Shown piece after piece: positions 5,730 through 40,155 of a stretch of DNA of 64,000 bases. Both the position numbers and the translations under genes were made by a program. The first letter of the stretch is position 1. Every line of letters begins with the position of its first letter. Below the pieces are notes generated by a model that was not told where the DNA came from, searched no databases, and was given only the letters and a program-made list of their open reading frames with translations. The DNA comes from an uncultured Bacilli bacterium (lineage in GTDB: Bacteria; Bacillota_I; Bacilli_A; RFN20; CAG-826), in the NCBI GenBank assembly GCA_944369075.1, contig CALVXK010000008.1:112-64111 (forward strand), written 5' to 3'.

Positions 5730-5732
5730 TTT

Positions 5733-21775: not shown

Positions 21776-23184
21776 TTATTCATCAAAGTAATTTGAATCA
21801 ATAAATGGAACCATATATGGTGGAATCTTAATTGTTTTATTTTCGTGGTCGATACTAAATTCTTTTGGATGAATTATAATAGAATAATAAACTCTATTTT
21901 TAAATTTTTCTTTAAATTTATCTAGAGAGGTAGTAGTGTAATTTGCGCTAGATTTAACTTCAATTGGTATTATTTTCAAGTTTGTTTTCACTTCGTTTGA
22001 TATTAAAAAGTCAATTTCTATATCATTTCTATGTTTTTCATTACTATAGTGTGTATAAAAAAATAATTTTTTACTCATAGAAGTTAAAGCTTGAGCAACA
22101 TAATTTTCAAGTAACATCCCTTTATTAATTGATAATTTACCACTAATAATTGCATTATATAAATTATCAGTTTTTATTTGGTTTTCATTAAAAGCCTGGC
22201 TGAATAGCAAACCAGTATCACCCAAATAGCATTTAACTTCGTTATCATTTAAAGTTAGCGAAAATCCAACGTTAGGGTCGTTTGTTTTATAGCATAGATT
22301 ACAAATAATAGAGTCTCCTAGCCAATATAATGATTCATCATAGTTACAAAATTTACCATTTTGGTCAAAAGTATTAAGTTTTAGTTTCTTTTCGTGAGTT
22401 GAAAGATTACTAGGAATATGCGAAAAGATAGTCTCAACTTTAGAACTATATTTCTGTCTAGATTTTTTGATGTCATCTTCGTAAAGAGATAAAATATCTC
22501 TTTTTGCTTTATCGCTTTTGCAAAAACTTAGATTATTTTCTAAATATTCTGTTACGCTTTGTGGCATCCCACCAACTAAGAGATATTCATAAAAAATACG
22601 CATGGCTTTATTGTGGTAAAATCTATCTAACTTTATTTTCTTTTCAAAACAATCTTTAATATGCGAAATAAGTATTTTTTCGTTTTTTGCGAGCATAAAT
22701 TCTTCAAAATTAAGAGGATACATTTTTATCTTTTCTTCTTCACTTGGAATTGTGATTGTAGAGACATTTTCTTTTATTGAAATTAAAGAGCCAGTTTCAA
22801 TCAAATCGTATCTTCCACCTTGAACTAGATATTTAATTGCTTCTCTAGCTCTAGGAAATGCTTGGATTTCGTGAATAATTAAAGTATGTCTTGGAAATAA
22901 TTCAGTATTTTTTCTAAACCTATATCTTTATATAAAAAATCTAAATTTCCAAGATTATTTTGAAAACTATTTTTTAGTTTATTACTAACAACATTGAAAT
23001 CCAGCAAGATATATGATTTATAGTTTTCTTTAGCGAATTTTTTAACAATTGTTGTTTTTCCAAAACGTCTGGCTCCTTCGATAAGCAATGCTGTTTTCCC
23101 GTTGGGTGAATTCTTCCAATCTTTTAGTTTTTGATAAATTTCTCTTTTTAATTCCATAAATATCTCATATAACTTTTTGTCCAA
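21776..23184 (-). pseudogene. AAA+ ATPase, AAA_14/DUF4143 family (paralog 2), frameshifted
   Basis: The N-terminal piece (22879..23184) carries Walker A 'GARRFGKTT'. Walker B 'LIIHEIQAFPRAREAIKYLV' reads in another frame and continues into 21776..22804. The frames overlap at the A6 run (22908-22913 on +). Confidence 0.8.
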
Positions 23185-23186: not shown

Positions 23187-23230
23187 CGCAAAGTAGATTT
23201 ATGCGAAAATCCAGGCTATACGCAAAGTAA
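23187..23230. repeat. CGCAAAGTA words, 34 bp apart, with a related TGCGAAAAT between them
   Basis: Copies at 23187 and 23221. On the gene's sense strand they read TACTTTGCG, upstream of the frameshifted ATPase. Compare AACTTTTTGCAA upstream of paralog 3. Confidence 0.5.
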
Positions 23231-23351
23231 TTTATAGTATCAGTTAATTAAAAGACAAGGCTTAATAGTAAATTTTATATTTTTAAATTGTTCCATTTTA
23301 TGTCCTTAAGTAATTTTTATAATTAATATAAATATTTGGAGGCTAGATTAA

Positions 23352-25952
23352 ATGGATAAAAATTTTGTAAATTATCAAGAAAAAATAGAGAAAATAGCAG
23401 GTTTATGTAATGTCGACTTATCAATAACTAACATTAATGAAGAAGCAATATTATCATACATATTAAACGATAAAACATTTGATTTATATGGAATTTATAA
23501 TCATAATTTAAGCCGATTATATAAATTAATTAAGGAGTTTAAACCAAAAACAAAAGATGAATTTATTTCTATTTTAGCTATTAATGAATTAACTTTTTTT
23601 GGGAATAAAGATTCAAGTTACTTAATTGAAGTCTTTAATAATTACGGTTATCTTACTTTAAGTAAAGAAAATTTAGTTAATCTTTTAATTGGTTTCGAAA
23701 TAGATAAAGATGATGCTATGATGATTATTAATCAAGTACCACATCTATTTAAAAAAGATATATTTATATTAGAATCATATGTTGAAGATAAATTTCTTAT
23801 CAATCTAATTAAAAATTTAGAAGAAATAAAAAGTGAAGAGTATTTGTTAAATCTATATAAAGATATTATTACTTTAATGTATTTTAAGATGAACTATAGA
23901 AATGTTTTTAATAAAGTTATTTCTAAAGATTTAAATAGAGTTGAAATAAATTCACATTTTTATCATGAAGTAAGATCTTATGAAACACTTGAAAAATGTA
24001 TAGAATCAATAAAAGAAAGAGATAATATTGATGTTCTTGTTATTTGCAATGATTCGTATTTATATAATCTAGATATTTTAAGATGTATAAAAGCAAGATA
24101 CGGACTAAAAAAACTTATTCAAGGCATAGAACTTAATGTTAGAAGTGATAACACTCAAATTTATAAAGTTTCTTTTCTTCCTAGAACTAAATTAGGAGCA
24201 AGAAACCTCTATGAACTTATAAGTAAAGCTAAAATAATTAACGATAAGTTTTATGTAACTTTTGATCAAATTATTGAGTATCGAAAAGATATATTTATTG
24301 GTTCACCTTGTTTTGAAAGCGAACTATTTTATTTAGCTTTAAATAAAGATTATGAAACATTAAAAGAAAGAATTAATTTTTATGATTATATCGAAATTGA
24401 ACCTCTTTCAAACTATTCCTTATTAAATCTTCCTAAATTAGATTTAAATGAATTAAAAGAAATAGTAAATATAGTAATAAAAATAGGAGAAGAATCTAAA
24501 AAGATAATTGTTGGAACATCAGATCATTATTTTAAACTTGATGAGAGTAATATAGTTAAAGAAGTATTATCTAATTGTTTTAACGTTAACATTAAAGAAG
24601 ACAATGAATATAAAACGAGATACTTAAATACTAAAGAATTATGTGATTCTCTTTCTATATTTATTGAAGATAAAGAAAAACTAGATGAGTATATTTTAAT
24701 TAATCCTAATAAGTTAGTTTCTTTCATTGATGATAATAGTTTTAACTTTTTTCCTAGACCATATTCTTTAATTAAAATAAATAATTCTAAAGAGAGATTA
24801 AAAGAGATATGTGATTTAAAGATTAAAGAAAAATATAATCTAGAATTATATGAAAAGATAAAAGAAATAGTATTCAAAGAGATAGATACTTTAAATAATA
24901 AATATGATTTATGTTCTACATTACTTTATTATTATTCCTTCTTCAATAAATTAAGTGAAGAAGGAATAATATATCTAACTAATCAAAGTAATATTCTTTT
25001 TACTTATTATTTGCTTGGTATAAGTAATATTGATCCTTTAACTATATTTTCTTTAGAAGATAATGATTTATTTACTTACTATAATTTAAATCATTTAGAT
25101 GGAAAGTATAACATTGATATTAAAATAAGTGTAAATTCTAAATTTATCGATAAAGCATATAAAGTCTTAAAAGAAACATTTAACGATAATAAGATTATAA
25201 GATTAAAAGAAGATTATAATGATTTAAATTTATCTAAAATTAATGAATTCGTAAATTCGTTTATTATTGTTCCAAAAGATGTCAATATTTATGAGTTTAC
25301 TCCTTTAATAAATGAAGTTACTTGTTTTACTAATTGTTATTTAAAGTGGATTTTTCCTATAATTTCTTTTAAAACTTCTAAAATAATGGATGAAGCTAGT
25401 GATTTATTAAATAAGAATAACTTAATTCTTTCTAGCATTAATTTAAATGATAAAAAAGTTCTCTCTTTCTTTAATAGTGAAGATTTTTTAAATAATAAAA
25501 TAAAAGATAAGAAACTAAGAAGCTTAAATCTAGTAAATAATTTAGAGATAAAAGAAATATTAAAGTTAGTTAAAATAAATAGTTTCTCTGCTTTAGTAAG
25601 AGTTTATGGAATATTATTTAACTCTTCTTCTAGTAAGTATATAGATATATTAAAAAAGCGTTATTTAAATAATGGAGTTTTAAATATAAAGGATATTATT
25701 TCATCTAAAGAAGATTTATTTATTTTCTTGCTTAAGTTTATTAAGGACGCTGATTTGGCTAAAAAATTTACATTCGACATATACACAGGAAGTGGTAAAG
25801 AAGATAAAGGGATTTTACGTAAGCTTAATGTTCCTAAAGACTCTATTGAATATTTTATTAATATAGAATACCTTCTTGGAAAGTCAACTATCGTTCAGAA
25901 CTTAATAATTGTATTTATTTTTGTTTATTGTTCGTTTTTATGCCAACAATAG
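23352..25952 (+). CDS. PolC/DnaE (C-family polymerase alpha)-derived protein with degenerate catalytic motifs and a duplicated fingers module (predicted pseudo-polymerase)
   Basis: By-eye matches to E. coli DnaE. PHP start: 'RVEINSHFYHEVRSYE' vs 'FVHLRVHSDYS'. Palm: 'LTNQSNILFTYYLLGISNIDPL' vs '[24 protein letters not shown]', and 'GKYNIDIKIS' vs 'SMPDFDVDFC'. The fingers module occurs twice: 'FKPKTKDEFISILAI...MYFKMNYRNVF' at the N-terminus and 'VKINSFSALVRVYGI...' at the C-terminus. SD GGAGG upstream. Confidence 0.6.
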   Translation: MDKNFVNYQEKIEKIAGLCNVDLSITNINEEAILSYILNDKTFDLYGIYNHNLSRLYKLIKEFKPKTKDEFISILAINELTFFGNKDSSYLIEVFNNYGYLTLSKENLVNLLIGFEIDKDDAMMIINQVPHLFKKDIFILESYVEDKFLINLIKNLEEIKSEEYLLNLYKDIITLMYFKMNYRNVFNKVISKDLNRVEINSHFYHEVRSYETLEKCIESIKERDNIDVLVICNDSYLYNLDILRCIKARYGLKKLIQGIELNVRSDNTQIYKVSFLPRTKLGARNLYELISKAKIINDKFYVTFDQIIEYRKDIFIGSPCFESELFYLALNKDYETLKERINFYDYIEIEPLSNYSLLNLPKLDLNELKEIVNIVIKIGEESKKIIVGTSDHYFKLDESNIVKEVLSNCFNVNIKEDNEYKTRYLNTKELCDSLSIFIEDKEKLDEYILINPNKLVSFIDDNSFNFFPRPYSLIKINNSKERLKEICDLKIKEKYNLELYEKIKEIVFKEIDTLNNKYDLCSTLLYYYSFFNKLSEEGIIYLTNQSNILFTYYLLGISNIDPLTIFSLEDNDLFTYYNLNHLDGKYNIDIKISVNSKFIDKAYKVLKETFNDNKIIRLKEDYNDLNLSKINEFVNSFIIVPKDVNIYEFTPLINEVTCFTNCYLKWIFPIISFKTSKIMDEASDLLNKNNLILSSINLNDKKVLSFFNSEDFLNNKIKDKKLRSLNLVNNLEIKEILKLVKINSFSALVRVYGILFNSSSSKYIDILKKRYLNNGVLNIKDIISSKEDLFIFLLKFIKDADLAKKFTFDIYTGSGKEDKGILRKLNVPKDSIEYFINIEYLLGKSTIVQNLIIVFIFVYCSFLCQQ

Positions 25953-25983
25953 TACTTCATACTTTTAGTATTAAGGAGAATTT

Positions 25984-26496
25984 ATGGAAATTAGAAGTGA
26001 TAACTTTATAGATTATTATTCAATCTATGCTAAAGATATTAGGTATGACTTATATGATAATTTAGGTTTTACTGGAGATACAATTAATGGACTCCCTATT
26101 TTTAAAAGAATAGAACTAGGAAATAACATTGATTTTGTTAATAAAGGAACATTAGAACGATTAGAAATATTAACTGGAAATATTTATTCTTCTGAATGTA
26201 TAGCAATGAATTATTGAAATCCTTTATTTTGGTTTGGTTTAGATAAAGAAAATGATCGAATAATGGCTTTAAATTCAGGAATCTCTAGAGATGAAGATAT
26301 GTGGATTATTTATAAAAATGGAATTGTAAATTGTTTAACTGGAGAATATGTTGAAGGAGAATTTGTAGCACAAAAAAGAGAATCTTTTTCTTGTGTTATA
26401 AATAGAGTTCCTAGAAGCTATATTTCATCAACTACTAATTTTTGTAACAATGTTTCTATCTTGCTAGGTTTAATTATTGATTTATTATCTATATAA
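25984..26496 (+). pseudogene. 170-codon reading frame of unknown function interrupted by one in-frame TGA (26215-26217)
   Basis: ORFs 25984..26217 and 26263..26496 are in the same frame. There is an SD before 25984 and none before 26263. Reading TGA as Trp gives 'MNYWNPLFWFG'. Confidence 0.5.
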
Positions 26497-26505
26497 GGAG
26501 AAGTT

Positions 26506-27483
26506 ATGTTTACTAAGAAAGATTATGATAATTTATTAAAAGAAATTTATATTAAAGAAGAACTCGAAAAAAGAAATAAAGATGTTTCAAATGAATTTAG
26601 AAGTGGTAGATACTCTAATTATTTTAAAGATGAATTTTTAGATAAAAATGGTAGATTTTATATAGATTTAAATAACTACCAAAATGCTTATTCTTCTTAT
26701 TTAGAAGGAGGGGGAGAAGAATTAATAAGTAAAGGAGTAAGACCACCTAAACTTCTTTCAATTGGATCAAGTTCTAATTTTTGTTTCTATTCTCTAAGAA
26801 ACAAAAATTATTTAGATAAGTTAGGTTTTAATTTCTTTTTAAAAGGTGGTGATAAGTTACTTAATAACTCAAATACTTATGAAAAAGCATTAAAAATAGA
26901 AGAAGTAAATAAAAATAGTTATATTGATGCATTTATGGAAGGAGAAAAAGAATTATATTTCTTTGAATGTAAATGTCATGAGTATTTTGATAAGCATGAA
27001 TTTGACTTAAGTTTAACATATGGAAAGAAAGAGTTAATAAAAGAATTAAAAATAGATCAATGTAGTAGTGATCCAAAAGGTATAAATTTTAATATTAATC
27101 CATACACTTATTTTGAATTAGATAAACTTTATAAAGATAAAGGAAGTAATGTTGAAATTACAACTTACTTTTATATTAAACAACTTTTAACTCATTTAAT
27201 GGCAATTACTGATTATAAATCATCTAAAAAGAAGAATTTAATCTATTTTTACTCTTTTCCACCATTAAAATATATATTAAATAACTTAGATCTTAAATCT
27301 CATTTAGTTAATGTAGTTAAAGAGACTTATCATGTATTTAACTTTCTGGAAACTAAGATAGATTATTTAAAAAAGAATAATATTGAATTAAGTTTATTTA
27401 TTAAAATAGATGGTAGAAGTGAAGAAAGTGCATGTTCTAATAATGTTATTAATGGATATAGATTCTTAGAACTAATGAAGTAA
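26506..27483 (+). CDS. PD-(D/E)xK nuclease-like protein
   Basis: 'SIGSSSNFCFYSL', then 'SYIDAFMEGEKELYFFECKCHE' (D...ExK). SD AAGGAG upstream. By-eye call only. Confidence 0.45.
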   Translation: MFTKKDYDNLLKEIYIKEELEKRNKDVSNEFRSGRYSNYFKDEFLDKNGRFYIDLNNYQNAYSSYLEGGGEELISKGVRPPKLLSIGSSSNFCFYSLRNKNYLDKLGFNFFLKGGDKLLNNSNTYEKALKIEEVNKNSYIDAFMEGEKELYFFECKCHEYFDKHEFDLSLTYGKKELIKELKIDQCSSDPKGINFNINPYTYFELDKLYKDKGSNVEITTYFYIKQLLTHLMAITDYKSSKKKNLIYFYSFPPLKYILNNLDLKSHLVNVVKETYHVFNFLETKIDYLKKNNIELSLFIKIDGRSEESACSNNVINGYRFLELMK

Positions 27484-27484
27484 T

Positions 27485-28402
27485 ATGGCCAATAAATTAA
27501 GTAATAAATATGATGAAAGAATAAAGGAATTAACTAAATTAACTAATATTAATTTAAGTGATATTAAATTCTTTGATAATGAGATTATATCTTACATTAT
27601 CAAAGAATTTGATTATGCTTATTATCTTCCTTCATTACAAGGATGTTACTTTAATAACTTTAATGATTTATATAATCTAGTTAATTTAGTTAAACCTAAA
27701 AATATTAATGAATTTATATTAATTTTAAATTTAGTAAATTCTAAGTTTCATTCTAAGAAATTAATATTAAAAGATATTAAAGAATATGGGATAAATAGCA
27801 TTATTACTAGTAAACCTAAATTGCTTAGTTATTTAATTAAATCTAATAATGATTTAAATTATGATGAAGCTATAGAGTTAATAAATGATTTAGATAAATT
27901 AAAATTATCTATTTATGATTTTAATTTATCTAAATATCTTAAAGAAGAGATATTAAATATAAAGAATCTATCTACATTAAGTGATTCTGCTAAATTATTT
28001 AAAAACATATATTATCTAGCTCATTTTAAAATACATTATGAAGGTATATTCTTTAATACTTTAATAAAAGAAGAAGGTAGTTTTGTAGGTCCATTCTTTT
28101 ATATAGATTCTAAAGTTTATGCATATAAAGAAAAAGTAGAATCGTTTAATGTTAAATTACTATATTTTGATTCTAATATGGGACATATGTTATTTTTTAA
28201 TACTTTAAATAAATATGGAGAATATAGTTATTATCCTAGAGGGAGAGTATTATTTGATAATCTAAATAAGATTTACCTTATTTATATCGATAAATCTTTA
28301 AATAAAGCTAAGATAAAAGAAGAAATAATTAATGAATATAACTTAAAGAATAAGAAAGTTAAATTTTGTTATGATGAACATTATGTTACTCTTGATTATT
28401 AA
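27485..28402 (+). CDS. Protein with an N-terminal PolC/DnaE fingers-module (paralogous to the N-terminus of the 866-aa protein) and an unknown C-terminal domain
   Basis: 'VKPKNINEFILILNL' and 'IYYLAHFKIHYEGIFF' parallel 'FKPKTKDEFISILAI' and 'ITLMYFKMNYRNVF' (DnaE 'LQPDCFEDMIALVAL', 'LWLKAHYPAEF'). The start is 1 nt after the upstream stop. Confidence 0.55.
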   Translation: MANKLSNKYDERIKELTKLTNINLSDIKFFDNEIISYIIKEFDYAYYLPSLQGCYFNNFNDLYNLVNLVKPKNINEFILILNLVNSKFHSKKLILKDIKEYGINSIITSKPKLLSYLIKSNNDLNYDEAIELINDLDKLKLSIYDFNLSKYLKEEILNIKNLSTLSDSAKLFKNIYYLAHFKIHYEGIFFNTLIKEEGSFVGPFFYIDSKVYAYKEKVESFNVKLLYFDSNMGHMLFFNTLNKYGEYSYYPRGRVLFDNLNKIYLIYIDKSLNKAKIKEEIINEYNLKNKKVKFCYDEHYVTLDY

Positions 28403-29285
28403 GTTTATCATTAACTAAATTTACTATTAAATTGGAGTATTTATAAACTATTTCGTTATTTCTAAGTGCTACATCTTTTAGATTATTAATTTGTTCTTTA
28501 GTTAATTCAATAATCTTATATCTGTCATTATCTTCATTAAATGTAAAACATCTAAATTTATATTTTTCGATTAATTCATAAGCATAACGATGACCAAATT
28601 TATATTGATCTAGCGGAACAATTACTCCTAATGCTAAAGAATCTATTTTGTAGTCTTTAAAATATTTTCTAGATTCTTCCAAATAATATCCAGAATTAAA
28701 GATATCTAACCAATGCGCATAAGTTAATATTTCACTTACTGCTCTAAATAAATTTTCTTTAGATGAAGGTATTTTATACTCATTTAATATTAATTGATTA
28801 ATGTCTCTATCAAGAGTAATTAAATCAACATTAGATTTACGGCGATATCTAGAACTAATAGGAGCTTCAAAATATAAAGGTTTAATTGATTTATTTTTAA
28901 AACTAAAAAGTAAGTTCTTTTCATTTAATTCTTTATTATTTACTAAATATATACATTGTTGTGGTTCATTCTTTGGATTTACCTCATATTTGTTACTATG
29001 AGTGTTTGGAATACAATTTTCTAATGTTATGGGTAAAGGCTTAATTTCATCAAATGAATGTTTATTGTTTAGGAAAAATGTTTGGTAAACATATTCTGAA
29101 AAGAGATTTTGTAGGATTGAATAATTGGCTGGCTTGTGTTTTGAAGGATCAACTTGATTTTTACTTAATAAATCATAAATTTCTTCAATTGTCGCATTTT
29201 TAACTGAGTTTAATTCAGATCCTTTGTTAAAAATAGCATCTATTCGGTTTATTATATTTTTTTCGTAATCAATCTTTTTAGCCAT
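28386..29285 (-). CDS. PD-(D/E)xK nuclease-like protein
   Basis: 'SNVDLITLDRDINQLILNEYKIPSS...AVSEILTYA' fits the D...ExK...Q..Y pattern. The 3' end overlaps the convergent ORF by 17 nt. Confidence 0.45.
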   Translation of the reverse strand: MAKKIDYEKNIINRIDAIFNKGSELNSVKNATIEEIYDLLSKNQVDPSKHKPANYSILQNLFSEYVYQTFFLNNKHSFDEIKPLPITLENCIPNTHSNKYEVNPKNEPQQCIYLVNNKELNEKNLLFSFKNKSIKPLYFEAPISSRYRRKSNVDLITLDRDINQLILNEYKIPSSKENLFRAVSEILTYAHWLDIFNSGYYLEESRKYFKDYKIDSLALGVIVPLDQYKFGHRYAYELIEKYKFRCFTFNEDNDRYKIIELTKEQINNLKDVALRNNEIVYKYSNLIVNLVNDKLNNQE

Positions 29286-29362
29286 AATAGTATTAACGAT
29301 TTAAAATTTATGTTTATTTTAACATTAAAACTTATAAAATAAAAGAAAGGAATAAAAGTTAA

Positions 29363-30268
29363 GTGTCAAAGTTATCTCAAGAATTAGAAATACTCTATTA
29401 TTTAAACAAAAACTATGATTCTAGAAGATTTATTGGTCTAGATGAAATTTTAGATTATCTAGATTTAGATAAGAAATGTGCTAGACAAGTAAGAAGATAT
29501 ATCGATGATTTAAATCTAGCTAAATTTTATATTGATACTAAAAGAGGACTTAATGGAGGATATCGTTTATTCGATAAATTAGAACCATCAAGTTTACTTG
29601 TTCCTAATATTGCTCTAGCATTAGTATTATCTTCTAAACATAATAAAAAGTTAGGGGAATATTTAAAAGATATACCTAATATCATTAAATATAATATTAT
29701 TGAAGGTGATAACGAAATAACTAGTAATACCTTAAACAAATTAATTGAAGTCGTTGCTTCAATTAATGATAAAGTAGGTATATCTTTTAAATATAAAGAT
29801 ATAGAAGATAATATAGATATTAATCCATATAAAGTTTTATATACTAATCATACTTATTATTTAATTGGATTAGATTTAAAAGATAATAAAGTTAAAGTAT
29901 ATGATGTAAATTATATAGATAATATTAAGTATATAGAAAAGTTTAATCTAGATAATATCTTATTAAATAAAATAGAAGATAGACTAAATAATTATGGTAT
30001 TAAGTTTTATCTTGATCAAGATAAAACTTATCTATTAAGAGTTAAATGTAAAAATAAGAATGTATTAGATAAATTTATTAAGTATTATGAAAATAAAGGT
30101 AAAGTAGATGGACTTATATTTGAAGTAAAAGGAAATAGTGAAAACGAATTATTTTATCCTTTATTAAGAATATCATCTAAAGATTATGTTATTTTAAATA
30201 ATAAGTTTAAAAAAGCTTTTACTTCTTATTTAGAAGCTTATTTAAATAATATAAAGAAAAATAAGTAA
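29363..30268 (+). CDS. HTH-WYL domain transcriptional regulator (BrxR/CapW-like architecture)
   Basis: N-terminal wHTH 'LDEILDYLDLDKKCARQVRRYIDDL'. WYL-type core 'INPYKVLYTNHTYYLIGLDLKDNKVKVYDVNYIDNIKYIEKF'. GTG start with an SD. Divergent from 28386..29285. Confidence 0.75.
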   Translation: MSKLSQELEILYYLNKNYDSRRFIGLDEILDYLDLDKKCARQVRRYIDDLNLAKFYIDTKRGLNGGYRLFDKLEPSSLLVPNIALALVLSSKHNKKLGEYLKDIPNIIKYNIIEGDNEITSNTLNKLIEVVASINDKVGISFKYKDIEDNIDINPYKVLYTNHTYYLIGLDLKDNKVKVYDVNYIDNIKYIEKFNLDNILLNKIEDRLNNYGIKFYLDQDKTYLLRVKCKNKNVLDKFIKYYENKGKVDGLIFEVKGNSENELFYPLLRISSKDYVILNNKFKKAFTSYLEAYLNNIKKNK

Positions 30269-30556: not shown

Positions 30557-30790
30557 ATGGAAAATGAAGTTAAAAGAAAAAAGAAGAATGTAGAAAATAC
30601 ATATCAAGATGAAATTACTAAACCTAAAAGAAGAACTACTCAAAAGAAAGTAGAATATCAAACTATTAGGAAAGAAAAAGCTATTAACTATAAGAAGAAC
30701 TTTAAGGTATTCTTAACTTTTGTAATTTTATCTATATTATTACTAATATATATCTTATATTTAGTAGTAATGGCATTTATACAAATATAA
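30557..30790 (+). CDS. Small Lys-rich protein with a C-terminal TM anchor
   Basis: 77-aa ORF followed by a good terminator. No homology evidence. Confidence 0.45.
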   Translation: MENEVKRKKKNVENTYQDEITKPKRRTTQKKVEYQTIRKEKAINYKKNFKVFLTFVILSILLLIYILYLVVMAFIQI

Positions 30791-31100: not shown

Positions 31101-31739
31101 ATGCTTAAAAGAAAATTATTAATGACAATTTTACCTGTATTATCAGCAGCAGTTATTGCAGGAGCTGGATTTAGTGCATGGGTATTTGATCATACAAATT
31201 CCGATGATGCTAATATGACTATTAATACTAACGTTGAGGATGCTTTTGATTACAGTATTAGTGTTTTAAAAACTACTGAGCCTGATAAGTTAAGTTTAGA
31301 TCAAGACACACCTGATTCTGTAGCAAGTGGAATTAGTTTTGTCAATGGCACAAAAGATACAGATTTAGTCTTACAAGTCGAACAATCCGGTGGTACCGCT
31401 AACTTTACATCATTAGATTTTGAAATAACAATTACATTAGATGATAGCTTAAATACTTATTTAGATTTTAATACATCTAGCATAGGCTCTATTTACAAAG
31501 ACAATGGCGAATGGGCTTCACAAGGTGAAACGACAGGTAAAACAATTACATTAACATTATCAGGTGTAACTTTTTCTGGTAATCAATCTTATAAATTTAC
31601 TTTAAATAATGGTAATCATAATTATTTACTTGATTACGCTGATGGTCAAAAACCTCAAAGATATACTGATTGGCAAGCTATGAACACTGCTTTAGCAAAT
31701 TCTTTAATGACTATTGATATCTCTGTTACTGCTAATTAA
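31101..31739 (+). CDS. Secreted TasA/camelysin-like candidate fibre subunit with SipW-cognate-like signal peptide
   Basis: '...VIAGAGFSAWVFDHTNS' resembles the TasA-type 'GGGTWAAFND' signal end. 212 aa. SD GGGAG upstream. Paralogous N-terminus to 35704..36378. Confidence 0.6.
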   Translation: MLKRKLLMTILPVLSAAVIAGAGFSAWVFDHTNSDDANMTINTNVEDAFDYSISVLKTTEPDKLSLDQDTPDSVASGISFVNGTKDTDLVLQVEQSGGTANFTSLDFEITITLDDSLNTYLDFNTSSIGSIYKDNGEWASQGETTGKTITLTLSGVTFSGNQSYKFTLNNGNHNYLLDYADGQKPQRYTDWQAMNTALANSLMTIDISVTAN

Positions 31740-31778
31740 TAGATTCTCCTCATCTATTCTTATTCTTGCTTTGGTCTA

Positions 31779-31818
31779 ATTAATATGGATAAAATTCTAC
31801 CCCTTTATCCATATTAAT
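31779..31818 (+). promoter_or_regulatory. Intercistronic 15-bp perfect hairpin (attenuator/mRNA-stabiliser candidate)
   Basis: attaatatggataaa-N10-tttatccatattaat between the first and second operon genes. No U-run follows. Confidence 0.6.
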
Positions 31819-31863
31819 AGATATATATTATAAATAAATATTATTTAATAGGTTTTTTGTTAT

Positions 31864-34746
31864 ATGTTTAAAAGTAATAAACGAAGAATATTATCTATAT
31901 TTATTATGGTACTAGCTTTAATAGTATTAGTACCTTCTTTTGCGTTATCATATTTTTATTTTAATACACCTTCTATTAATGACCCTACCAATATCGATAA
32001 TGGTAGTGTCAATGGTAATAATGGTATAGATGATATAAAAGAAAACTATACCGGTAATAAAGATGATAGTTCAAAAGAATATACTATCTATTTCTTCCCA
32101 TCAGTACTTTATACTCAATACTATTTGAATCAATTAACTAATTCAACAACATTAGGAATTACACCATTAGATGGAGTAAATCCTGAAGATTGGTTTGGAT
32201 ATAATGAATTAACATATAATGAAGATACAGATGGTTTCACTTCTAATATTTACTTCAACGGAACAAATTATTTATACAATAACGTTGCTACTGATAGAAT
32301 GGGTGATTTAGGTTATATAAATTTTATAACTGACACCTACGATAAACATAGAGATAGTGAAATAGTAGAAGGAACTCATAATGGTGAGACAAGAAAAGTT
32401 ATAGAAGCTGAACATATAGATAAAAACCCAGATAAATTTAGCATTAAAAGTCAAGATTATAATCTATTGTCTCAAACATATTTGCCTTTTAGCGAGGGCG
32501 ATTTCGAAAGCGGAATAGCTAGCAATGGTATGGATGATTATAGGTATTCTTGGGACGCTTATAATAGAGATTTTGGAGATCCTTTAGATGTAGTAGAAAA
32601 ACAGTATTTTGACTCTTCTTTTTTATTTGAAAATGGTGGAGACTATGAAAACATGCCTAAATTGGATGGGCAGTTTAATTATGACAATATATATAAAATG
32701 GATAGATTTGGTTTTTGGCCAAATAACAGAGTCAATATTGAACCTAACAAAGACTTTAAATTGATTAAGCATTATGAAAATGTCAAATACAGATATGAAG
32801 GAATCATTTTTCATCCTACTTACGAAGGACCTGTTACAGTAGAGATTACTCAACATTTTTCTGTAAATCAAAACCAAGTAGCTGATTTAAATTTAGGGAG
32901 ATATTTACCTTATAAATTAAAGGTTGACGACTATTTGCCTATTGATTGGTATGAAAATTTAATAGATTTTCCTGAAAGCGATATGGGAGATATCAATAAA
33001 TATGGAAGTGATCACAATAATGCTCCTAATCCTTTTTATAATTATTCTTTTGCTGGATGGGGATATTTCAATGAAAAAAACGAATTCTCTGTTGCTTTAA
33101 ATGCTGGCGATAATGTTATCGAGAAAGTATTTACTTCTGAAAACATTAGCAACACTTTTGATATTATGTCCAATTTAGAACAATATGCGGATGATAATGG
33201 TGTGATTAGATTATTTCCAATATTTTCTAATGGTAAAAAATATTCTACTAATCCAGGTAGCACAGCTAATGATCAATATGCATTTAGATTAAATTTTAAC
33301 GATAAGCCTACAAGCGAAAGTGTAAGTTATGAGTACAATATTGATAATTATTTTTTACGAAACGGTACATCTCAAAATTCGAGTATAAGTTTAACTAGAA
33401 TTGGGAATTTTAGATATGATGTCAGTTATAATGGTACTAGCAAATACATTAATGTTGAGGTAACGACAGCTAATAACTATATTCTCTCAGATGACACTTG
33501 GGAAATAAGTATGTATGGTCGAAATTTCGAAAAAGTTTTGCGAACTAACTATGGACTTTATAACATATATATTTTTGCTTATAACGGGCAAGACGCTAAT
33601 GTATTAAACGAAGCGAATATAGAACGAACTATTAGAGATTTTTATCCAACGAAAAATCTAGGCAATATTCATTATAATATTGATGAAGTTAACACATATG
33701 GAGACTCTCTTAAATATATAATTGGTTATGAGAGAATAAGTGATGTAAAGTTTATAGAAGGATTAAACGAGGGTGCTCCCTTTGATAGCCAAATTTCAGA
33801 GGACAAATACAATAATTCCCAATCTATGCTTAAGCAAAGTAATAAAGTTTTCCTTGCTAATGATGTTATCGATAATGATTCATGTTTTACTATTGGAGAA
33901 GGTATTGAAGCAGGACATAAGGTAATTTCTGACTTTAATTTTTCAAAAATTACTTACGATCTATATAGTACCCCAATTAATAATGATAATATCTATTTAA
34001 TTAAAAACATTGATTTTACAAACTATAGTAGTTTAGATGAATCGATTTTCCAAATTAAATTAAATATAAATTCAAATACTTCTGAACAATTTGCATTTAG
34101 TGATCCTTATGCCGATGGAAGTAGTAATACGGTAATTAAATTTAAAAACGAAAAATTTGATGCCCTTATTTATAATCCTAGTGGTGATTTAACTGATGAA
34201 AATGTGTTTATACCAGCTTCTTATTATTTTGAACAGGTAACAGATAATTTAGGTGGATATGGTTATAAACCTAGACACACTGTCTATCTAGGAATGTATG
34301 ATTTTATATTATATTTTGGTGGATCTAACTATGAATTATATTGTTATAGACATTCGAATATGACTGTTTCAATTTATAGTAAAGATCAACAAGATAATGA
34401 TAGAGATGGGTATGTTGATCCTATTCAAAATGAATTGATTTGGTCAAGAAAAACATTTATTGGTTCTTATTTAGAAGATAGTAATAGCGGTAATGTAGGT
34501 TCTATCGTTGGACAAACATTAAAAGATACTATTAATGGTTACCTCATTAATAATGGTGCAGATAAATCAAAACCTTATTACATCAGGGACCATGTAACTG
34601 GGTTAGATTTATTTAGATTTACATTTAATAATGAAACAAATTCATGGGATGTTCAAAAGTTATTAAATGATTTTAGAATTCGTAAAAATTATGTTTTCTA
34701 TATTACTAATGAAGAACCATTAGTAAATCAAAGTAGTGGTAATTAG
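31864..34746 (+). CDS. Large (960 aa) extracytoplasmic protein with N-terminal SipW-like signal/anchor, function unknown
   Basis: 'LIVLVPSFALSYFYFNTPS' N-terminus. Asn/Tyr/Asp-rich, with no recognisable catalytic motif. Internal antisense ORFs are judged spurious. The SD is weak. Confidence 0.6.
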   Translation: MFKSNKRRILSIFIMVLALIVLVPSFALSYFYFNTPSINDPTNIDNGSVNGNNGIDDIKENYTGNKDDSSKEYTIYFFPSVLYTQYYLNQLTNSTTLGITPLDGVNPEDWFGYNELTYNEDTDGFTSNIYFNGTNYLYNNVATDRMGDLGYINFITDTYDKHRDSEIVEGTHNGETRKVIEAEHIDKNPDKFSIKSQDYNLLSQTYLPFSEGDFESGIASNGMDDYRYSWDAYNRDFGDPLDVVEKQYFDSSFLFENGGDYENMPKLDGQFNYDNIYKMDRFGFWPNNRVNIEPNKDFKLIKHYENVKYRYEGIIFHPTYEGPVTVEITQHFSVNQNQVADLNLGRYLPYKLKVDDYLPIDWYENLIDFPESDMGDINKYGSDHNNAPNPFYNYSFAGWGYFNEKNEFSVALNAGDNVIEKVFTSENISNTFDIMSNLEQYADDNGVIRLFPIFSNGKKYSTNPGSTANDQYAFRLNFNDKPTSESVSYEYNIDNYFLRNGTSQNSSISLTRIGNFRYDVSYNGTSKYINVEVTTANNYILSDDTWEISMYGRNFEKVLRTNYGLYNIYIFAYNGQDANVLNEANIERTIRDFYPTKNLGNIHYNIDEVNTYGDSLKYIIGYERISDVKFIEGLNEGAPFDSQISEDKYNNSQSMLKQSNKVFLANDVIDNDSCFTIGEGIEAGHKVISDFNFSKITYDLYSTPINNDNIYLIKNIDFTNYSSLDESIFQIKLNINSNTSEQFAFSDPYADGSSNTVIKFKNEKFDALIYNPSGDLTDENVFIPASYYFEQVTDNLGGYGYKPRHTVYLGMYDFILYFGGSNYELYCYRHSNMTVSIYSKDQQDNDRDGYVDPIQNELIWSRKTFIGSYLEDSNSGNVGSIVGQTLKDTINGYLINNGADKSKPYYIRDHVTGLDLFRFTFNNETNSWDVQKLLNDFRIRKNYVFYITNEEPLVNQSSGN

Positions 34747-34769
34747 TTTAGTTAAAGGAGGAAATAAGA

Positions 34770-35711
34770 ATGGGCGGACAAGATAGATTAGGTATTGTTG
34801 CATTAGTTGTATCAATATTTGTTATTCTGGGTTTAGTAATTGTTTTTTGTTTCTTATTCTTTCTTTATTCTTTTTATAAGAAAAAACAAATTAAATATGG
34901 CTTTGAAGATAAAGAATTAAATGATGAAATTACTTCGACTTTATATAAAACTAATAAGAAAAATTTAAGTAGGAATGAAAATCTAATTACATATAAAGAT
35001 GTAATTGCTAGAGAAAAAAGTATTACTTCAAAATTACATATCGTCATGGATGTAGTTAGTGGGGTAATTATTGCTTTTTTACTTGCTATATTTATTACAG
35101 GTTTAACTTATAGAATTAATAACGATAACTTATTTATTGGCAATACGACTTATATGACAATTCTTACTTCTTCAATGGAAGAAAAGAATGAAGATAATGA
35201 TTATTTACTTACATATGATTTAAATGATCAAATAACTCAATATTCTTTAATTGGTATAGATAAAATTAATAGTGAAGATGACATTGAGTTATACGATATT
35301 TTAGCTTATAAACATGACGATATCGTTATCGTTCATAGAGTTGTAGAAATAAAAGAAAATGATAAAGGTGAAACAATTTATCGTTTACAAGGAGATTCGA
35401 ATCCATCTTCTTTAAGTTACGAAAAAGAATTAACATTTGATAATTTTATTGGTAAATATAATGGATATCAAAATTATGGTTTAGGCGTAACTTTAACTTA
35501 CATTAAATCAAATATTGGTATCATTGCAGTTTTAGGTGCTGCTATTTTCTTATTTTTAGCAACGTATGCTGAAGAAATGATTAATAATGAATATAAAACT
35601 AGACTCTTATTACTTGCAGATGATAATACATTAAATAAAGATTTAAAGTTAATTATTAAACTTAAAGAATCTCATATTTTAGAGAGTAAGGAAGAAAATA
35701 TAAATGAATAA
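34770..35711 (+). CDS. sipW: SipW-type (S26B, ER/archaeal-type) signal peptidase I with extended N- and C-termini
   Basis: 'TSSMEE' (Ser box, cf. SGSMEP), 'IVIVHRVVEI' (His box, cf. THRI) and 'LQGDSNP' (cf. KGDNN). TM helices lie before and after the catalytic domain. SD GGAGG upstream. Confidence 0.75.
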   Translation: MGGQDRLGIVALVVSIFVILGLVIVFCFLFFLYSFYKKKQIKYGFEDKELNDEITSTLYKTNKKNLSRNENLITYKDVIAREKSITSKLHIVMDVVSGVIIAFLLAIFITGLTYRINNDNLFIGNTTYMTILTSSMEEKNEDNDYLLTYDLNDQITQYSLIGIDKINSEDDIELYDILAYKHDDIVIVHRVVEIKENDKGETIYRLQGDSNPSSLSYEKELTFDNFIGKYNGYQNYGLGVTLTYIKSNIGIIAVLGAAIFLFLATYAEEMINNEYKTRLLLLADDNTLNKDLKLIIKLKESHILESKEENINE

Positions 35712-36378
35712 AATTCGTAAAATTTCATTAATATTTAGTGTTTTATCTTTAATTTCTTCTATGTCTATTATAGGAGTTGGTTTTTCGATTTGGGTTTTTG
35801 ATGAAGGTGAAAAGACAATTAAAAGTAACGTTGTAGTTAGCGTTTCTGATACTTATTCTTTTGGAGAAGTCCATGTTTATGCACCTAATACATATTACTT
35901 AGAACCACCTTCTGATAAACTTGCAACTTATGGTGGATTAGTATTTTATACTCGTGATAGTGATCACGTTAATGAAGGACATGAGTTAGATTATACTTTA
36001 GGAAGTAGTGTTGCTTTGGCCATTAAATCTAATTCAAGCAATCAAGAAACGCTAGATCCAGCGATTATTGATGATATAGTAAAAAATCTTAAATGTACTT
36101 TAAGTATTTCTTTTACAAAAGATAGTGCATTAATGAAATACTTTAATATTAAAGTGCCTACGCACGAATTTTCTTTCTCATACGATAGTGGCAATAGATA
36201 CTCTGAAATAGATTTCGTATCAAAAGATGCTTTCAATTTAAACGGCAATTTTGAATATAAACAAGGTGCTTTAACTTCTATAGATGGAGATAATAATGGA
36301 ATTATTGATCCTAATGAATGGAACAATGAGGAAAATAAAGGCTCAGTTATCTTAAGTTTTGAGTTTTCGGGTTTATAG
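35704..36378 (+). CDS. Secreted TasA/camelysin-like candidate subunit 2 with SipW-cognate-like signal peptide
   Basis: 'IIGVGFSIWVFDEGEK...VVVSVSDTYSF' parallels 'AGAGFSAWVFDHTNS...NTNVEDAFDYS'. Overlaps the sipW stop by 8 nt. Confidence 0.6.
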   Translation: MNKIRKISLIFSVLSLISSMSIIGVGFSIWVFDEGEKTIKSNVVVSVSDTYSFGEVHVYAPNTYYLEPPSDKLATYGGLVFYTRDSDHVNEGHELDYTLGSSVALAIKSNSSNQETLDPAIIDDIVKNLKCTLSISFTKDSALMKYFNIKVPTHEFSFSYDSGNRYSEIDFVSKDAFNLNGNFEYKQGALTSIDGDNNGIIDPNEWNNEENKGSVILSFEFSGL

Positions 36379-36544: not shown

Positions 36545-36592
36545 CGATTTATTTAATCTGTTTTTCTGTTAAAATATAAGAGGGGTGTGCTA

Positions 36593-37936
36593 ATGTTTAA
36601 ACGAAAGATATATTCTCACTTATTAAAATGGAAAAACGAAACTCAAGGTAGAACAGCGCTTTTGATTGAAGGAGCTAGGCGTGTTGGCAAAACTAAAATA
36701 GCCGAAACATTTGGTAAAAATGAATTTAAGAATTATAAATTAATCGATTTTTCTATTCAATCAGAAAATGTTATTAATAGTTTCAATTATTTAAACGATT
36801 TAGAAAAGTTTTTTGAGTATTTATTTTTAGCATTAGGAATAAATCCCTTACCAAAAGGTAGTTTATTAATATTTGATGAAGTTCAATTTTGTCCTAAAGC
36901 AAGACAAGCAATAAAAACTTTAGTTGCTGACGGACGTTATTATTATTTAGAAACTGGATCCTTAGTTTCAATAAAAGAAAATACACAAGATATTTTAATT
37001 CCCTCTGAAGAAGAGTCTATAGAGATGTATCCAATGGATTTTGAGGAATATTTATGGGCTTGTGGATTAGAGTTTGAGGCTAATGCTATCTTGAAACATT
37101 TTAAAGATAGAAATCCATTTCCTAATGATATGCATAATTTGTTGATGCAAAATTTTCGAACATATCTTGCTATAGGTGGCATGCCAAAAGTTGTTGATAC
37201 GTACCTAACAACTCATAGTTTTTTTGCTGCTGATAAAGAAAAAAGAATGATTATTAAACTTTATGAGGAAGATTTGAGAAAAATTGATAATAATTTTAAA
37301 ACGATTTGCTATCTTGTTTGGAAACAAATGCCTGCAATGCTTTCAAAACATTCAACAAGATTTATCGTTTCTTCAACTAACGAAAGGTCTGATTCAGTAT
37401 TATTCACTAATACTATGGAAAAATTGATTGAATCAAAAATGGTTGTTGCCGTATACAAATGTACTGACCCAAGCGGCGGTTTCGCTTTAACAAAAGATTT
37501 AAGTTCTTTTAAACTATATTTTAATGACACCGGTTTATTTACAAGTATTATTTATCCAGACACCAAAAATGATTCGCAAGATCTTTACCAACGTTTAGTT
37601 TTTGATAAACTCAAAACAAATTTAGGAATGTTATTTGAAAATGCCTGCGCCCAAATTCTTCTCGCTAATTCTTTTGAGCCATATTATTATTCATGGAGGG
37701 AAGAAGCTGAAAACGTAAAAAAGAATTATGAAATAGATTTTATAGTTTCTAAAAATGGGAAGACGATTCCTTTTGAAGTAAAATCAAGAAATACATCTTG
37801 CATAGAATCTCTTGAAGCTTTTAGAAGAAAATTTGTTAAAAAAATTGGTGAAAAATATATTGTTCACATAAAACAATTATCCTACGGAGACAATTTGACT
37901 TACCTTCCTTATTATATGCTTTTTTGTGTTAGATAA
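36593..37936 (+). CDS. AAA+ ATPase, AAA_14/DUF4143 family (paralog 3)
   Basis: Walker A 'GARRVGKTK', Walker B 'LLIFDEVQFCPKARQAIKTLV', C-terminal 'YEIDFIV...FEVKS'. ATG at 36593 is preferred, 7 nt after GAGGGG. The N-terminus is close to that of paralog 2. Confidence 0.8.
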   Translation: MFKRKIYSHLLKWKNETQGRTALLIEGARRVGKTKIAETFGKNEFKNYKLIDFSIQSENVINSFNYLNDLEKFFEYLFLALGINPLPKGSLLIFDEVQFCPKARQAIKTLVADGRYYYLETGSLVSIKENTQDILIPSEEESIEMYPMDFEEYLWACGLEFEANAILKHFKDRNPFPNDMHNLLMQNFRTYLAIGGMPKVVDTYLTTHSFFAADKEKRMIIKLYEEDLRKIDNNFKTICYLVWKQMPAMLSKHSTRFIVSSTNERSDSVLFTNTMEKLIESKMVVAVYKCTDPSGGFALTKDLSSFKLYFNDTGLFTSIIYPDTKNDSQDLYQRLVFDKLKTNLGMLFENACAQILLANSFEPYYYSWREEAENVKKNYEIDFIVSKNGKTIPFEVKSRNTSCIESLEAFRRKFVKKIGEKYIVHIKQLSYGDNLTYLPYYMLFCVR

Positions 37937-38055: not shown

Positions 38056-38878
38056 ATGAAACAAATTATTAGAGAAAATTACTTAGATTTTTTATCTAAA
38101 GAAGCCGTTTTTGTTGAAAAAGAGGCATTAATTGATGAATTAAAAAATGTAATTAAGTTTTTAGATTTAAGTTCATTTGTAAATTTTGCTGACCAGAAAA
38201 GTAAACTTAAATTTATGGATGAAGCTTCTTTATCTAAGATTTATGATAATTGTTTCATTGACAAACTTTCTAAAGTTAAATGTCTAACCCTTGTTTATGT
38301 GCAAATTGGAAATTATTAGGAAGAAAATTATTGTCAATATATTGATAACGAAGATGATTTAGGTACTATTCTTAAAACTATTAGAAATATTAAATTATTG
38401 GATAGATTTAATTTTGATAAAACTAGAATTCTTAAAATTTTGAATTATATATTTCTAAATATAAGATATGAAAAATGTGTTAAGGACGAATATGATGATG
38501 AATATATTGATGATATAGAAAGATTGAATCTTTATGATTTATTAAATTATTCAAGATTTTCTAAGAAAAAAGAATTTTCAAGCATTCCAAATCTCTATTT
38601 AAAAATATTTAGTTTTAAATAGAGATTATGAACATTTTCTTAATTTCATCGATTTATATAATGATTCTTCTTTTCTTATAAAGATTAAAAATGTTTTATC
38701 TAACCTTAAAATCGATAGAAGAAAAATTATTGAGTTTATTGAAAAATATTGATTCAAATTAGATTTGAAAATAATGTATTAAGTCATAACTATGATGAAG
38801 AAATTGAACAAATGTTAAAAGAATTTGTAGAAAAACTAAAAATCTATAACTGGAATCATCTTTACCAAGATAATTATT
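38056..38878 (+). pseudogene. Decayed gene of unknown function
   Basis: ORFs 38056..38319 and 38398..38622 share a frame across an in-frame TAG. The coding-like sequence continues in two other frames, with a TGA at about 38750, to the stop at about 38876. Confidence 0.5.
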
Positions 38879-39605
38879 AATCAATATCGTTATTACTTTT
38901 ATCTTCTTTTTCATCTAAAGATGTAGTATCAACTATATTCTTATTATAAAAAGAAGATAAATCCATCTTATCTAAATTAGCACTATATATCTTTTTAGAC
39001 ATTTTAGATATTCGATAACTTCTTGCAATATAGGCCATAACGTTAACTAAATACCAAATTAGACCAATAAGAAGAAAGAAGAATATAAAGTAATTAAATA
39101 TTCTTTCATCACTAAAAGGAGTAGGAGGAGTAACAATTACTTTATCAAAATCAAATCCTAAAGGTGGAACATATTCTACTTTAGAAAAATCAAATGAATA
39201 AAATAAGGAAGCAATACCTGTTTCTCTATTAAAAATAGATTCAAACCAAGGATGTTCATTAAAAACTAAATGGTAAACTAAATATAAAATTAAAGTAATT
39301 AAGAAAAATATAAATGGATATAAAGATGCTTTAAAAAATCTATCCATTGATTTAATATGAGCAAACTTCTTAAAGTCTTTAGAATTATCACATACTCTAG
39401 AAGTAACTAAATAAGCCATATCTTTATCAACTGCTTTAGATTGGACTTTTAAAATATATCTTATTAGCATTCCAATTAGTCCAAATAAGATAAAAACAAT
39501 TACTACGATAAAAAAGATTACAAGTAGTACTTTCCATGATACATCAAAAAATTTATTTAAAACTAAGTTAACTAATATCATCATCTTCATCATCAACTCT
39601 TTCAT
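38877..39605 (-). CDS. Membrane protein (about 4 TM), unknown function
   Basis: Hydrophobic spans in the translation. Overlaps the upstream ORF by 38 nt, suggesting an operon. Confidence 0.55.
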   Translation of the reverse strand: MKELMMKMMILVNLVLNKFFDVSWKVLLVIFFIVVIVFILFGLIGMLIRYILKVQSKAVDKDMAYLVTSRVCDNSKDFKKFAHIKSMDRFFKASLYPFIFFLITLILYLVYHLVFNEHPWFESIFNRETGIASLFYSFDFSKVEYVPPLGFDFDKVIVTPPTPFSDERIFNYFIFFFLLIGLIWYLVNVMAYIARSYRISKMSKKIYSANLDKMDLSSFYNKNIVDTTSLDEKEDKSNNDID

Positions 39606-40137: not shown

Positions 40138-40155
40138 AAGTTAATTATAAGGTAA

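Follow-up and report, generated by a model that had tools for sequence, protein, structure and literature searches.

Reverse transcriptases, SMC proteins and helicases are housekeeping machines already known to have been recycled as immune sensors. Transcription regulators with a WYL domain of the BrxR and CapW kind are known to mark defence operons (PMC9122601, PMC11662680), and the WYL regulators DriD and CapW respond to single-stranded DNA (ssDNA) or DNA damage (PMC13004042, PMC11662680). In ImuB, a catalytically dead polymerase acts as a hub (PMC6511836). The cassette described here lies at positions 23352 to 30268 of a 64-kb stretch of DNA from an uncultured Bacilli bacterium (contig CALVXK010000008.1; "the window" is this whole stretch) and combines a WYL regulator with proteins derived from the replicative polymerase PolC and with candidate nucleases of the PD-(D/E)xK type. 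It belongs to a previously undescribed family of uncultured gut and rumen Bacilli and Erysipelotrichaceae. That this family is a real, conserved, modular and fast-evolving accessory cassette of DNA-centred parts under a WYL regulator is established, and the comparative evidence leans towards an inducible system of defence or conflict directed against phages or other invading DNA. The copy in the window, a rearranged, partly eroded and degenerate member of the family, consists of the following features (aa, amino acids; nt, nucleotides; HTH, helix-turn-helix; ORF, open reading frame), in which PRGRV is a domain name coined here.

23352-25952, plus strand: 866-aa PolC-derived pseudo-polymerase, as given in the ORF listing
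25984-26496, plus strand: 170-codon pseudogene from a family of small tail-anchored proteins (pieces 25984-26217 and 26263-26496, 77 aa each)
26506-27483, plus strand: 325-aa PD-(D/E)xK-like nuclease candidate
27485-28402, plus strand: 305-aa protein (PolC fingers module 27485-28060, PRGRV domain 28061-28402)
28386-29285, minus strand: second PD-(D/E)xK-like protein, 299 aa
29286-29362: divergent intergenic region of 77 nt that separates the 299-aa gene from the WYL gene; promoters and an operator are presumed from the sequence only
29363-30268, plus strand: 301-aa HTH-WYL transcription regulator

The same gene order is present in a 93%-identical strain and in over 20 other contigs of the species, which come from several studies (at least 24 contigs), and distant relatives with 33-40% identity form a stereotyped operon in metagenome-assembled genomes (MAGs) of other Bacilli and Erysipelotrichaceae from rumen and gut metagenomes. 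The usual order runs from a WYL gene through one or more nuclease genes to the gene of a PRGRV protein, a 79-aa membrane protein and often a separate PolC-like gene. The nuclease slot holds a relative of the 299-aa or 325-aa protein, or of both, or another nuclease, sometimes followed by a 153-aa homolog of the product of the broken 170-codon gene. The PRGRV protein comes either with 188 aa and a short fingers piece or with 446-467 aa and both palm and fingers, the 79-aa protein is conserved and has an N-terminal hydrophobic (membrane) helix, and the PolC-like protein is 495-500 aa long. Co-occurrence was counted over 49 PRGRV-anchored loci, with denominators that differ by feature: a WYL gene lies within 4 kb upstream of PRGRV in 17 of 28 loci, a 325-like nuclease lies near it in 24 of 41, the 79-aa gene follows directly on the 3' side in 31 of 47, and PolC pieces are carried on the anchor protein itself in 29 of 49. 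The initial annotation of this DNA had made its proposal depend on the families recurring together outside this genome, and many unrelated MAGs do contain them together with a WYL gene. It had missed the conserved core of the cassette, namely the PRGRV domain and the 79-aa membrane protein, the latter of which the window does not contain, and likewise that the window holds an atypical, eroded arrangement.

Gene fusions tie the parts of the cassette together. In the related proteins (numbered with P, as the related loci are with L), 299-like and 325-like domains are joined in P0013, PRGRV and a 325-like domain in P0050, P0053 and P0059, and a Pol III palm and PRGRV in P0057 and P0071; further fusions combine PRGRV with the ATPase domain of a DnaB-type helicase (P0149, 397 aa; Pfam DnaB_C E = 2e-40) and with the DNA-binding FtsK_gamma domain (P0121, 300 aa; E = 4e-9). 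Nuclease families also interchange at one position of the operon, where 325-like proteins, 299-like proteins, a 250-aa protein with a PD..EGK motif (L015) or a REase-ARP protein can be found. REase-ARP (PF22558) is probably the rapidly evolving restriction endonuclease (REase) effector of the antiviral systems predicted in PMC9503650, an equation made from the Pfam name alone.

No element of the cassette family is more highly conserved than PRGRV. The domain covers residues ~193-305 of the 305-aa protein and forms a compact β-hairpin-α-β-hairpin-α-β unit of ~110 aa, in which G202, H234, R252, R254 and Y300 are invariant and P251, G253, V255, D269, D297 and H299 nearly so. No Pfam model covers it, no significant match was found in the PDB by sequence or by fold (Foldseek), and the one structural match is A0A8S5M7X7, an uncharacterised protein of a gut siphovirus; PRGRV is classed here as a new domain. 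An exhaustive search gave 161 sequence clusters at E <= 1e-3, many of them stand-alone proteins of ~115 aa. With its invariant His, its Arg-Gly-Arg and its Asp-x-His-Tyr, of which His and Tyr are conserved and Asp nearly so, PRGRV could in its own right be a new enzyme or a sensor of nucleotides. Two identities were considered and rejected. A match to the 'GRG' of arginine kinase in the PDB searches (E = 0.0036 over 29 residues) was judged to be chance, and ARPP (PMC9503650) has a conserved Cys and Gln and a beta-barrel.

Outside PRGRV, the 305-aa protein consists of a fingers module of PolC. Its AlphaFold2 model has a predicted local distance difference test (pLDDT) value of 96, residues ~1-205 match PolC (9qrl/3f2c) in Foldseek with a probability of 1.0, and the family profile matches the fingers of PolC 3f2b at E = 2.2e-10. 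The module has none of the fingers sequence motifs, and the protein contains no palm. Longer members of the family match the DnaE palm near D401/D403 (E = 7.8e-5), with the first catalytic Asp replaced in the consensus. The fingers assignment of the initial annotation thus stands; the PRGRV domain had been missed.

Stand-alone PRGRV genes were also observed outside the cassettes. Distant PRGRV-like ORFs of 111 aa, annotated as hypothetical, occur on 59 small Acinetobacter plasmids, where they adjoin repM, a Doc-type toxin gene and a macro-domain gene (e.g. L062, A. baumannii NZ_AP024807.1, 1884-2219). Others directly follow a pair formed by a MoxR-type AAA ATPase and a DUF2201 VWA/metallopeptidase protein, and in another locus a PRGRV gene follows an MBL/RMMBL (metallo-β-lactamase fold) nuclease gene beside a DDE transposase (these loci are L022 7515-10333, L044 and L055 5105-9767).

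The 866-aa protein matches the NCBIfam PolC model (E = 2.7e-31, 108 bits) without reaching the equivalog cutoff of 873 bits, as well as Pfam PHP (E = 6e-6) and the PolC structures 9qpc (E = 5.6e-20) and 3f2b in the PDB. Residues 1-190 form an extra fingers-like module, followed by PHP (~195-520), palm (~520-700) and fingers (~700-866), where the protein ends. In the alignment with PolCs the PHP domain has no Exo insert and its metal ligands are degenerate, and the N-terminal, OB, Exo, clamp-binding and C-terminal HhH domains are all missing. A single Asp is left of the PDIDLNF pair in the palm, the Asp of KLDILGH is replaced, the fingers motifs SHGTxxW and KYMFPKAH are gone, and there is no Zn finger. 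The protein was initially annotated as a catalytically degenerate PolC derivative, an assignment that both the PolC matches and the lost aspartates bear out, and both polymerase-derived proteins of the window are predicted to be catalytically dead. A recent duplicate or pseudogene of polC was rejected as an explanation, since the identity to any real PolC is only ~22% and the open frame has been maintained. The extra module connects the two proteins, as residues 8-216 of the 866-aa protein share 30% identity (E = 3e-11) with the N-terminal half of the 305-aa protein. It takes the place of a head that weakly resembles the DNA-binding FtsK-gamma domain (2j5p, E = 0.04) and is found at the N-terminus of cassette PolC-like proteins and in a 98-aa protein of a shorter cassette variant described below. 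Among phage records, the 866-aa protein matched only polC-like fragments in unannotated "phage" entries.

Other cassettes hold less degenerate polymerases. The protein in the PolC slot of L038 (896 aa, 4393-7083) matches DNA_pol3_alpha (2.5e-46) and PHP (7.8e-31) in Pfam, is 33-40% identical to real PolCs and keeps the HxH, Zn finger, PDIDLN, KMDILGH and fingers motifs intact, although Exo, OB and C-terminal domains are missing; a gene for an SNF2-family helicase follows. The 748-aa cassette polymerase of L045 (155-2401) likewise keeps the catalytic triad and the fingers motifs and has no proofreading exonuclease domain. The 495-aa PolC-like family retains the fingers motifs and has lost the aspartates, the window copy has lost both and has the most degenerate set of polymerase motifs in the family, and in 10 of 47 loci only polymerase remnants of less than 250 aa are left. 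Since the L038 and L045 polymerases keep their motifs, the lineage would have begun as a working exonuclease-less PolC paralog, and the family probably forms a series from an active exonuclease-less polymerase through scaffolds to loss. In L065-L067, a 202-aa ORF downstream of the cassette carries the duplex-binding HHH_6 domain of Pol III alpha, a detached piece of PolC/DnaE, and in L066 (5585-7838) this ORF is followed by a large serine recombinase that borders the cassette.

The suggestion that the degenerate polymerase could be a decoy or guard of the host replicase found no direct support: the polymerases of L038 and L045 keep DxD, the third Asp and the fingers motifs. For the dead proteins the decoy idea may still apply, but it is not needed, and it is weakened by the apparently active relatives.

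Both candidate nuclease families carry an invariant E…D…ExK of the PD-(D/E)xK type, in agreement with the initial annotation. In the 325-aa family, which includes homologs of ~306 aa, S88, S89, E126, D141, E154, K156, E159, K225, Q226 and H230 are invariant over 20 sequences, and in the AlphaFold2 model (pLDDT 82) the E126/D141/E154/K156 motif lies on three consecutive predicted strands. Its profile weakly matches the PD-(D/E)xK protein 1y88 (E = 0.013) and aligns with REase-ARP proteins over the catalytic core (hhalign probability 49%). Foldseek gave nothing significant for this protein, the sub-threshold matches being SduA (the best, E = 0.23), Cas4, MGME1 and McrC. The 299-aa family has E140, D154, E169 and K171 invariant in seven sequences; it has no PDB profile match, and neither protein has a Pfam match. 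A comparison of the two family profiles was uninformative, as a fusion protein is present in one of the alignments. Homologs of the 299-aa gene sit between the WYL gene and the 306-aa gene in L003, L020, L037 and L042, and the gene in the window is inverted relative to these. Profile and structure searches have thus recovered the PolC fold, and for the nuclease fold only weak or sub-threshold matches.

The 301-aa protein matches WYL in Pfam (E = 1.4e-5, 25.4 bits against a cutoff of 21.8) and in PADLOC (E = 3e-10 and 1e-9), which upholds the attachment of a WYL regulator to the cassette, and it is 36% identical to the WYL gene product heading the L003 cassette. Its N-terminal HTH-type matches are weak (Rrf2, E = 0.033), and PDB sequence and profile searches gave no close solved homolog. 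A search for an operator or shared motif upstream of the 866-aa and WYL genes found nothing above the AT-rich background.

As an inducible defence or conflict system, the cassette could work as follows. The WYL repressor would hold the operon low until a cue of infection or DNA damage arrives; CapW and other characterised WYL repressors bind ssDNA. PolC-derived fingers and palm modules together with PRGRV would then recognise an intermediate of DNA or of replication (a 3' end, for instance, or a junction of primer and template) or perhaps a nucleotide, and this recognition would bring or activate the PD-(D/E)xK nucleases, which would cut DNA. In canonical cassettes the small membrane proteins could be an extra effector or an anchor. 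Sensing and nuclease activation are steps that we infer. This reading is favoured because swapped nucleases, islands with AbiEii, TIR and MNT-HepT genes, variable flanks and the WYL marker are features of conflict systems. The flanking genes vary by locus and include an SNF2 helicase, leucine-rich repeat surface proteins and metabolic genes. A shorter variant encodes the 98-aa protein, PRGRV in a protein of 203 aa, a membrane protein of 71-80 aa and a nuclease of the REase-ARP type. It occurs in two independent contigs (L064 3078-10748; L070 458-8822), there with a membrane protein of 71-77 aa and within islands that contain AbiEii, a methyltransferase-TIR fusion and an MNT-HepT pair, so that the expected proximity to known defence genes does hold for some variants. 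The same two islands also hold DUF2971 and RhuM.

Several observations weigh against a role in defence. No component of the cassette matches a validated defence protein in PADLOC: only the WYL protein matches PADLOC-DB v2, whereas 16 further cassette proteins, encoded in the window and in four related loci, have no match at E <= 1 or E <= 0.1, a result that also fits the earlier statement that the gene set corresponds to no system that can be named. Scans of all cassette proteins against Pfam, NCBIfam, PHROGs and PADLOC recovered PolC, PHP and WYL and no further match, and literature searches for a defence system based on PolC or Pol III found none. The immediate neighbours in the window, DUF4143 ATPases and surface proteins, are not established defence genes. 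The putative nuclease folds are based on motifs and weak profile matches, and Foldseek gave no significant result. In the window copy, the 170-aa gene is a pseudogene, the 79-aa family, directly downstream of PRGRV in 31 of 47 loci, was searched for and is absent, and dN/dS (the ratio of nonsynonymous to synonymous substitution rates) of 0.64-0.65 for the 866-aa and 299-aa genes suggests relaxed constraint. Finally, the combination of WYL regulator, polymerase, nuclease and small membrane protein would equally fit a DNA-damage response.

This last point leads to the main rival, which we consider unlikely: a cassette for DNA-damage tolerance or mutagenesis with a logic like that of ImuA-ImuB-DnaE2 or the DriD regulon. 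The WYL protein would sense ssDNA after damage, the exonuclease-less PolC paralog, active or as a scaffold, would work at stalled forks, the nucleases would process intermediates, and the small membrane protein would delay cell division as DidA or YneA do. Patchy distribution and fast sequence evolution do not fit such a function well, nor does the location of variants in AbiE/TIR/HEPN islands. A damage response is favoured by the L038 and L045 polymerases, which keep their catalytic motifs without a proofreading Exo domain; however, in most cassettes no polymerase is predicted to be active, and the repeated truncation or loss of the polymerase (less than 250 aa in 10 of 47 loci) and the swapping of nuclease families at one position point away from it. 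The response of DriD and CapW to ssDNA or DNA damage (PMC13004042, PMC11662680), the fusion of PRGRV to replisome parts (PolC pieces, DnaB_C) and the precedent of ImuB for a dead polymerase as hub (PMC6511836) are all consistent with a damage response, although no ImuA/RecA-like or Y-family partner is found among the Pfam-annotated neighbours of the loci examined.

The state of the window copy bears on a different alternative, namely that it is a horizontally acquired, eroding and non-functional relic whose ORFs are intact for lack of decay time. In this copy the 299-aa and WYL genes sit downstream, unlike in the usual order, with the 299-aa gene inverted. The initial annotation had described four packed co-directional ORFs; the gaps of 31, 9 and 1 nt between them are correct, but the second ORF, at 25984-26496, is not intact, as it is interrupted by an in-frame TGA that had been overlooked. 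Shine-Dalgarno sequences (GGAGG/AAGGAG) precede the first three starts as it reported, and none precedes the 305-aa gene. Its account of the other genes is also accurate, the 299-aa ORF converging on the 305-aa gene with a 17-nt overlap at the end of the latter and the HTH-WYL gene diverging from the 299-aa ORF across 77 nt.

The broken gene consists of two 77-aa ORFs in one frame, split by a single TGA at 26215-26217. Intact members of its family elsewhere have 153 aa, with a hydrophobic helix at the C-terminus, and when the stop is read through, the translation aligns on both sides of it with the 153-aa gene of L003 (E = 8e-8). Other strains have a different TGA, at codon 92, one of them together with a frameshift, and three lineages of the species have independent disruptions of the gene. 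The genetic code of the genome is code 11, with Trp encoded by TGG throughout 52 long ORFs and no in-frame TGA in other genes. Because of this code and of the different TGA and frameshift in other strains, the 170-aa gene is read as a pseudogene in this species' copy. Code 4 (TGA = Trp) was rejected as an explanation of the in-frame TGA, since all Trp codons are TGG, ORF boundaries would hardly change and other strains are disrupted differently.

The five other genes behave differently. After 3-4% divergence between strains they contain no stops, and indels, which were also found in intergenic DNA and in the pseudogene, are nearly absent from them, with none relative to L005 and a single event, in the 325-aa gene, relative to L013. 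In a neutral simulation the 866-aa gene, given 91 neutral substitutions, would stay free of stops with a probability of 0.008, and all five genes together with one of ~1e-5. The dN/dS values are 0.15 for the WYL gene, 0.22 for the 305-aa gene, 0.28 for the 325-aa gene, 0.64 for the 866-aa gene and 0.65 for the 299-aa gene. These five remaining genes are kept open by selection. A relic is less likely than a functional cassette and, in our estimate, rather improbable: the simulated stop frequencies, the scarcity of indels, the dN/dS of 0.15-0.28 for three of the genes and the same gene order in at least 24 contigs of the species from several studies argue against it. Erosion is nevertheless what would be expected from the three independent disruptions of the 170-aa gene, the absence of the 79-aa gene, the predicted dead polymerases with the most degenerate motif set in the family, the inverted 299/WYL segment, the dN/dS of 0.64-0.65 for the 866-aa and 299-aa genes and the neighbouring DUF4143 gene, which is also a pseudogene.

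The idea that the cassette helps a phage, plasmid or integrative element to replicate or persist, its PolC-like and DnaB-related parts being used to copy the element itself, is likewise less likely and indeed very improbable, given that there are only two matches in 2.9 million viral contigs and, for the 305-aa protein, none in 50,697 GenBank phage or 72,556 PLSDB plasmid records, that the cassette has no conserved association with initiator, primase, clamp, integrase or structural genes and that most cassette polymerases are predicted to be unable to polymerise, even though Pol III alpha genes in minimal or split form are known from phages (PMC7824862), an IMG/VR contig (L025) bears one full cassette, a serine recombinase lies beside the cassette in L066, stand-alone PRGRV is found beside repM on Acinetobacter plasmids and a gut siphovirus protein provides a structural match.

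In the window, the housekeeping genes tsaE, tsaB, rimI, tsaD and asnS lie upstream of the cassette, and its DNA is therefore taken to be chromosomal. The G+C content of the cassette is 21.1%, against 25.1% for the window. Its description as the lowest-G+C part holds at its own scale, with only 1.4% of 6.9-kb sliding windows being lower, and fails at a finer one, as some 1-kb bins elsewhere are lower. The lowest of these bins (40001-41000, 14.6% G+C) lies within a minus-strand cluster of three ORFs at 38877-41085, one of which has a weak DUF2232 membrane-protein match. DUF4143/AAA_14 genes bound the region as reported, with a split pseudogene at 21776-23184 (minus strand) and an intact paralog at 36557-37936 (plus strand). 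The former is divided into two ORFs of 342 and 101 aa and is intact, with 461 aa, in strains L001 and L005. Between this pseudogene and the 866-aa gene, in their divergent region, an imperfect direct repeat, CGCAAAGTA(G)ATTTAT x2, at 23187-23236 is richer in G+C than its surroundings and statistically not significant.

Just past the WYL gene, a gene at 30557-30790 (plus strand) encodes a lysine-rich protein of 77 aa with a strong C-terminal membrane helix, which shares no homology with the 79-aa proteins of other cassettes. Between strains this gene diverges more than any other (about 8.5% of nt), yet its dN/dS is 0.11. Four consecutive secreted or surface-like ORFs without convincing Pfam domains follow at 31101-36378 (plus strand; 212, 960, 313 and 224 aa). 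The 960-aa ORF has 903-908 aa in other strains, so that the region is variable within the species.

Should the defence reading be true, a C-family replicative polymerase would join the housekeeping machines recycled as immune sensors. Tentatively, a more specific and more doubtful proposal can be put forward, in which the cassette represents a new class of immune system that arose from a duplicated host replicative polymerase: an exonuclease-less PolC paralog, with its catalytic motifs still intact in some cassettes, and the dead proteins derived from it would detect the invading DNA by its replication intermediates or nucleotides and, coupled via PRGRV, would license PD-(D/E)xK nucleases and a membrane effector. 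On this proposal a C-family replicase would have been co-opted for defence for the first time. A role in defence would also reveal PRGRV as a widespread domain (161 clusters, E <= 0.001) linked to PolC, DnaB, FtsK-gamma and several nuclease families. The putative series from active polymerase through dead scaffolds to lost genes would offer material for studying how enzymes become sensors, and the hosts are uncultured gut and rumen Bacilli with small genomes, whose defence repertoires are almost unknown. If the cassette were instead a damage-response module, it would be a WYL-controlled counterpart of the ImuB/DnaE2 mutasome built on PolC, which would still be novel.

The cassette resembles several described systems in part. 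With PolC (3F2B, 9QPC) it shares the PHP, palm and fingers over which the 866-aa protein aligns and the fingers fold of the N-terminal half of the 305-aa protein, while its proteins carry an extra fingers module or a PRGRV fusion and are encoded alongside nucleases and a WYL regulator in an accessory operon. As in the BrxR-BREX and CapW-CBASS operons, an HTH-WYL gene heads or flanks a modular accessory operon with nuclease-type effectors (PMC9122601, PMC11662680), but neither BREX nor CBASS components nor those of other catalogued systems are present, and the cargo genes are new families. In jumbo phages of group 2.2, the minimal split Pol III alpha (PMC7824862) is similarly a C-family polymerase reduced to palm and fingers over separate proteins. 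The phage version, however, is described as probably reconstituting a complete catalytic enzyme and belongs to a phage replication gene set (PMC7824862), whereas the cassette, which is cellular, has degenerate modules that are fused to PRGRV and associated with nucleases.

REase-ARP (PF22558) and PDDEXK_13 proteins fill the nuclease slot beside PRGRV and the 79-aa gene in variant cassettes, and the FE…D…FFExK..E core of REase-ARP appears to be shared with the 325-aa family (hhalign probability 49%). In contrast, the 325-aa and 299-aa proteins of the window reach no Pfam model, and no ARG, phosphatase or ARPP genes are present. The likeness to ImuA-ImuB-DnaE2 extends to the accessory cassette itself, to a non-proofreading C-family paralog combined with a dead polymerase-derived scaffold and, plausibly, to induction by damage. 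The dead protein of the cassette is nevertheless of the C-family and not of the Y-family, and there is no RecA-like ImuA, in line with the absence of Pfam or NCBIfam matches to ImuA, ImuB and DnaE2 in the cassette. What sets the cassette apart from this mutagenesis system are its PD-(D/E)xK nucleases, its PRGRV domain and its membrane protein, together with a polymerase that is mostly inactive or lost.

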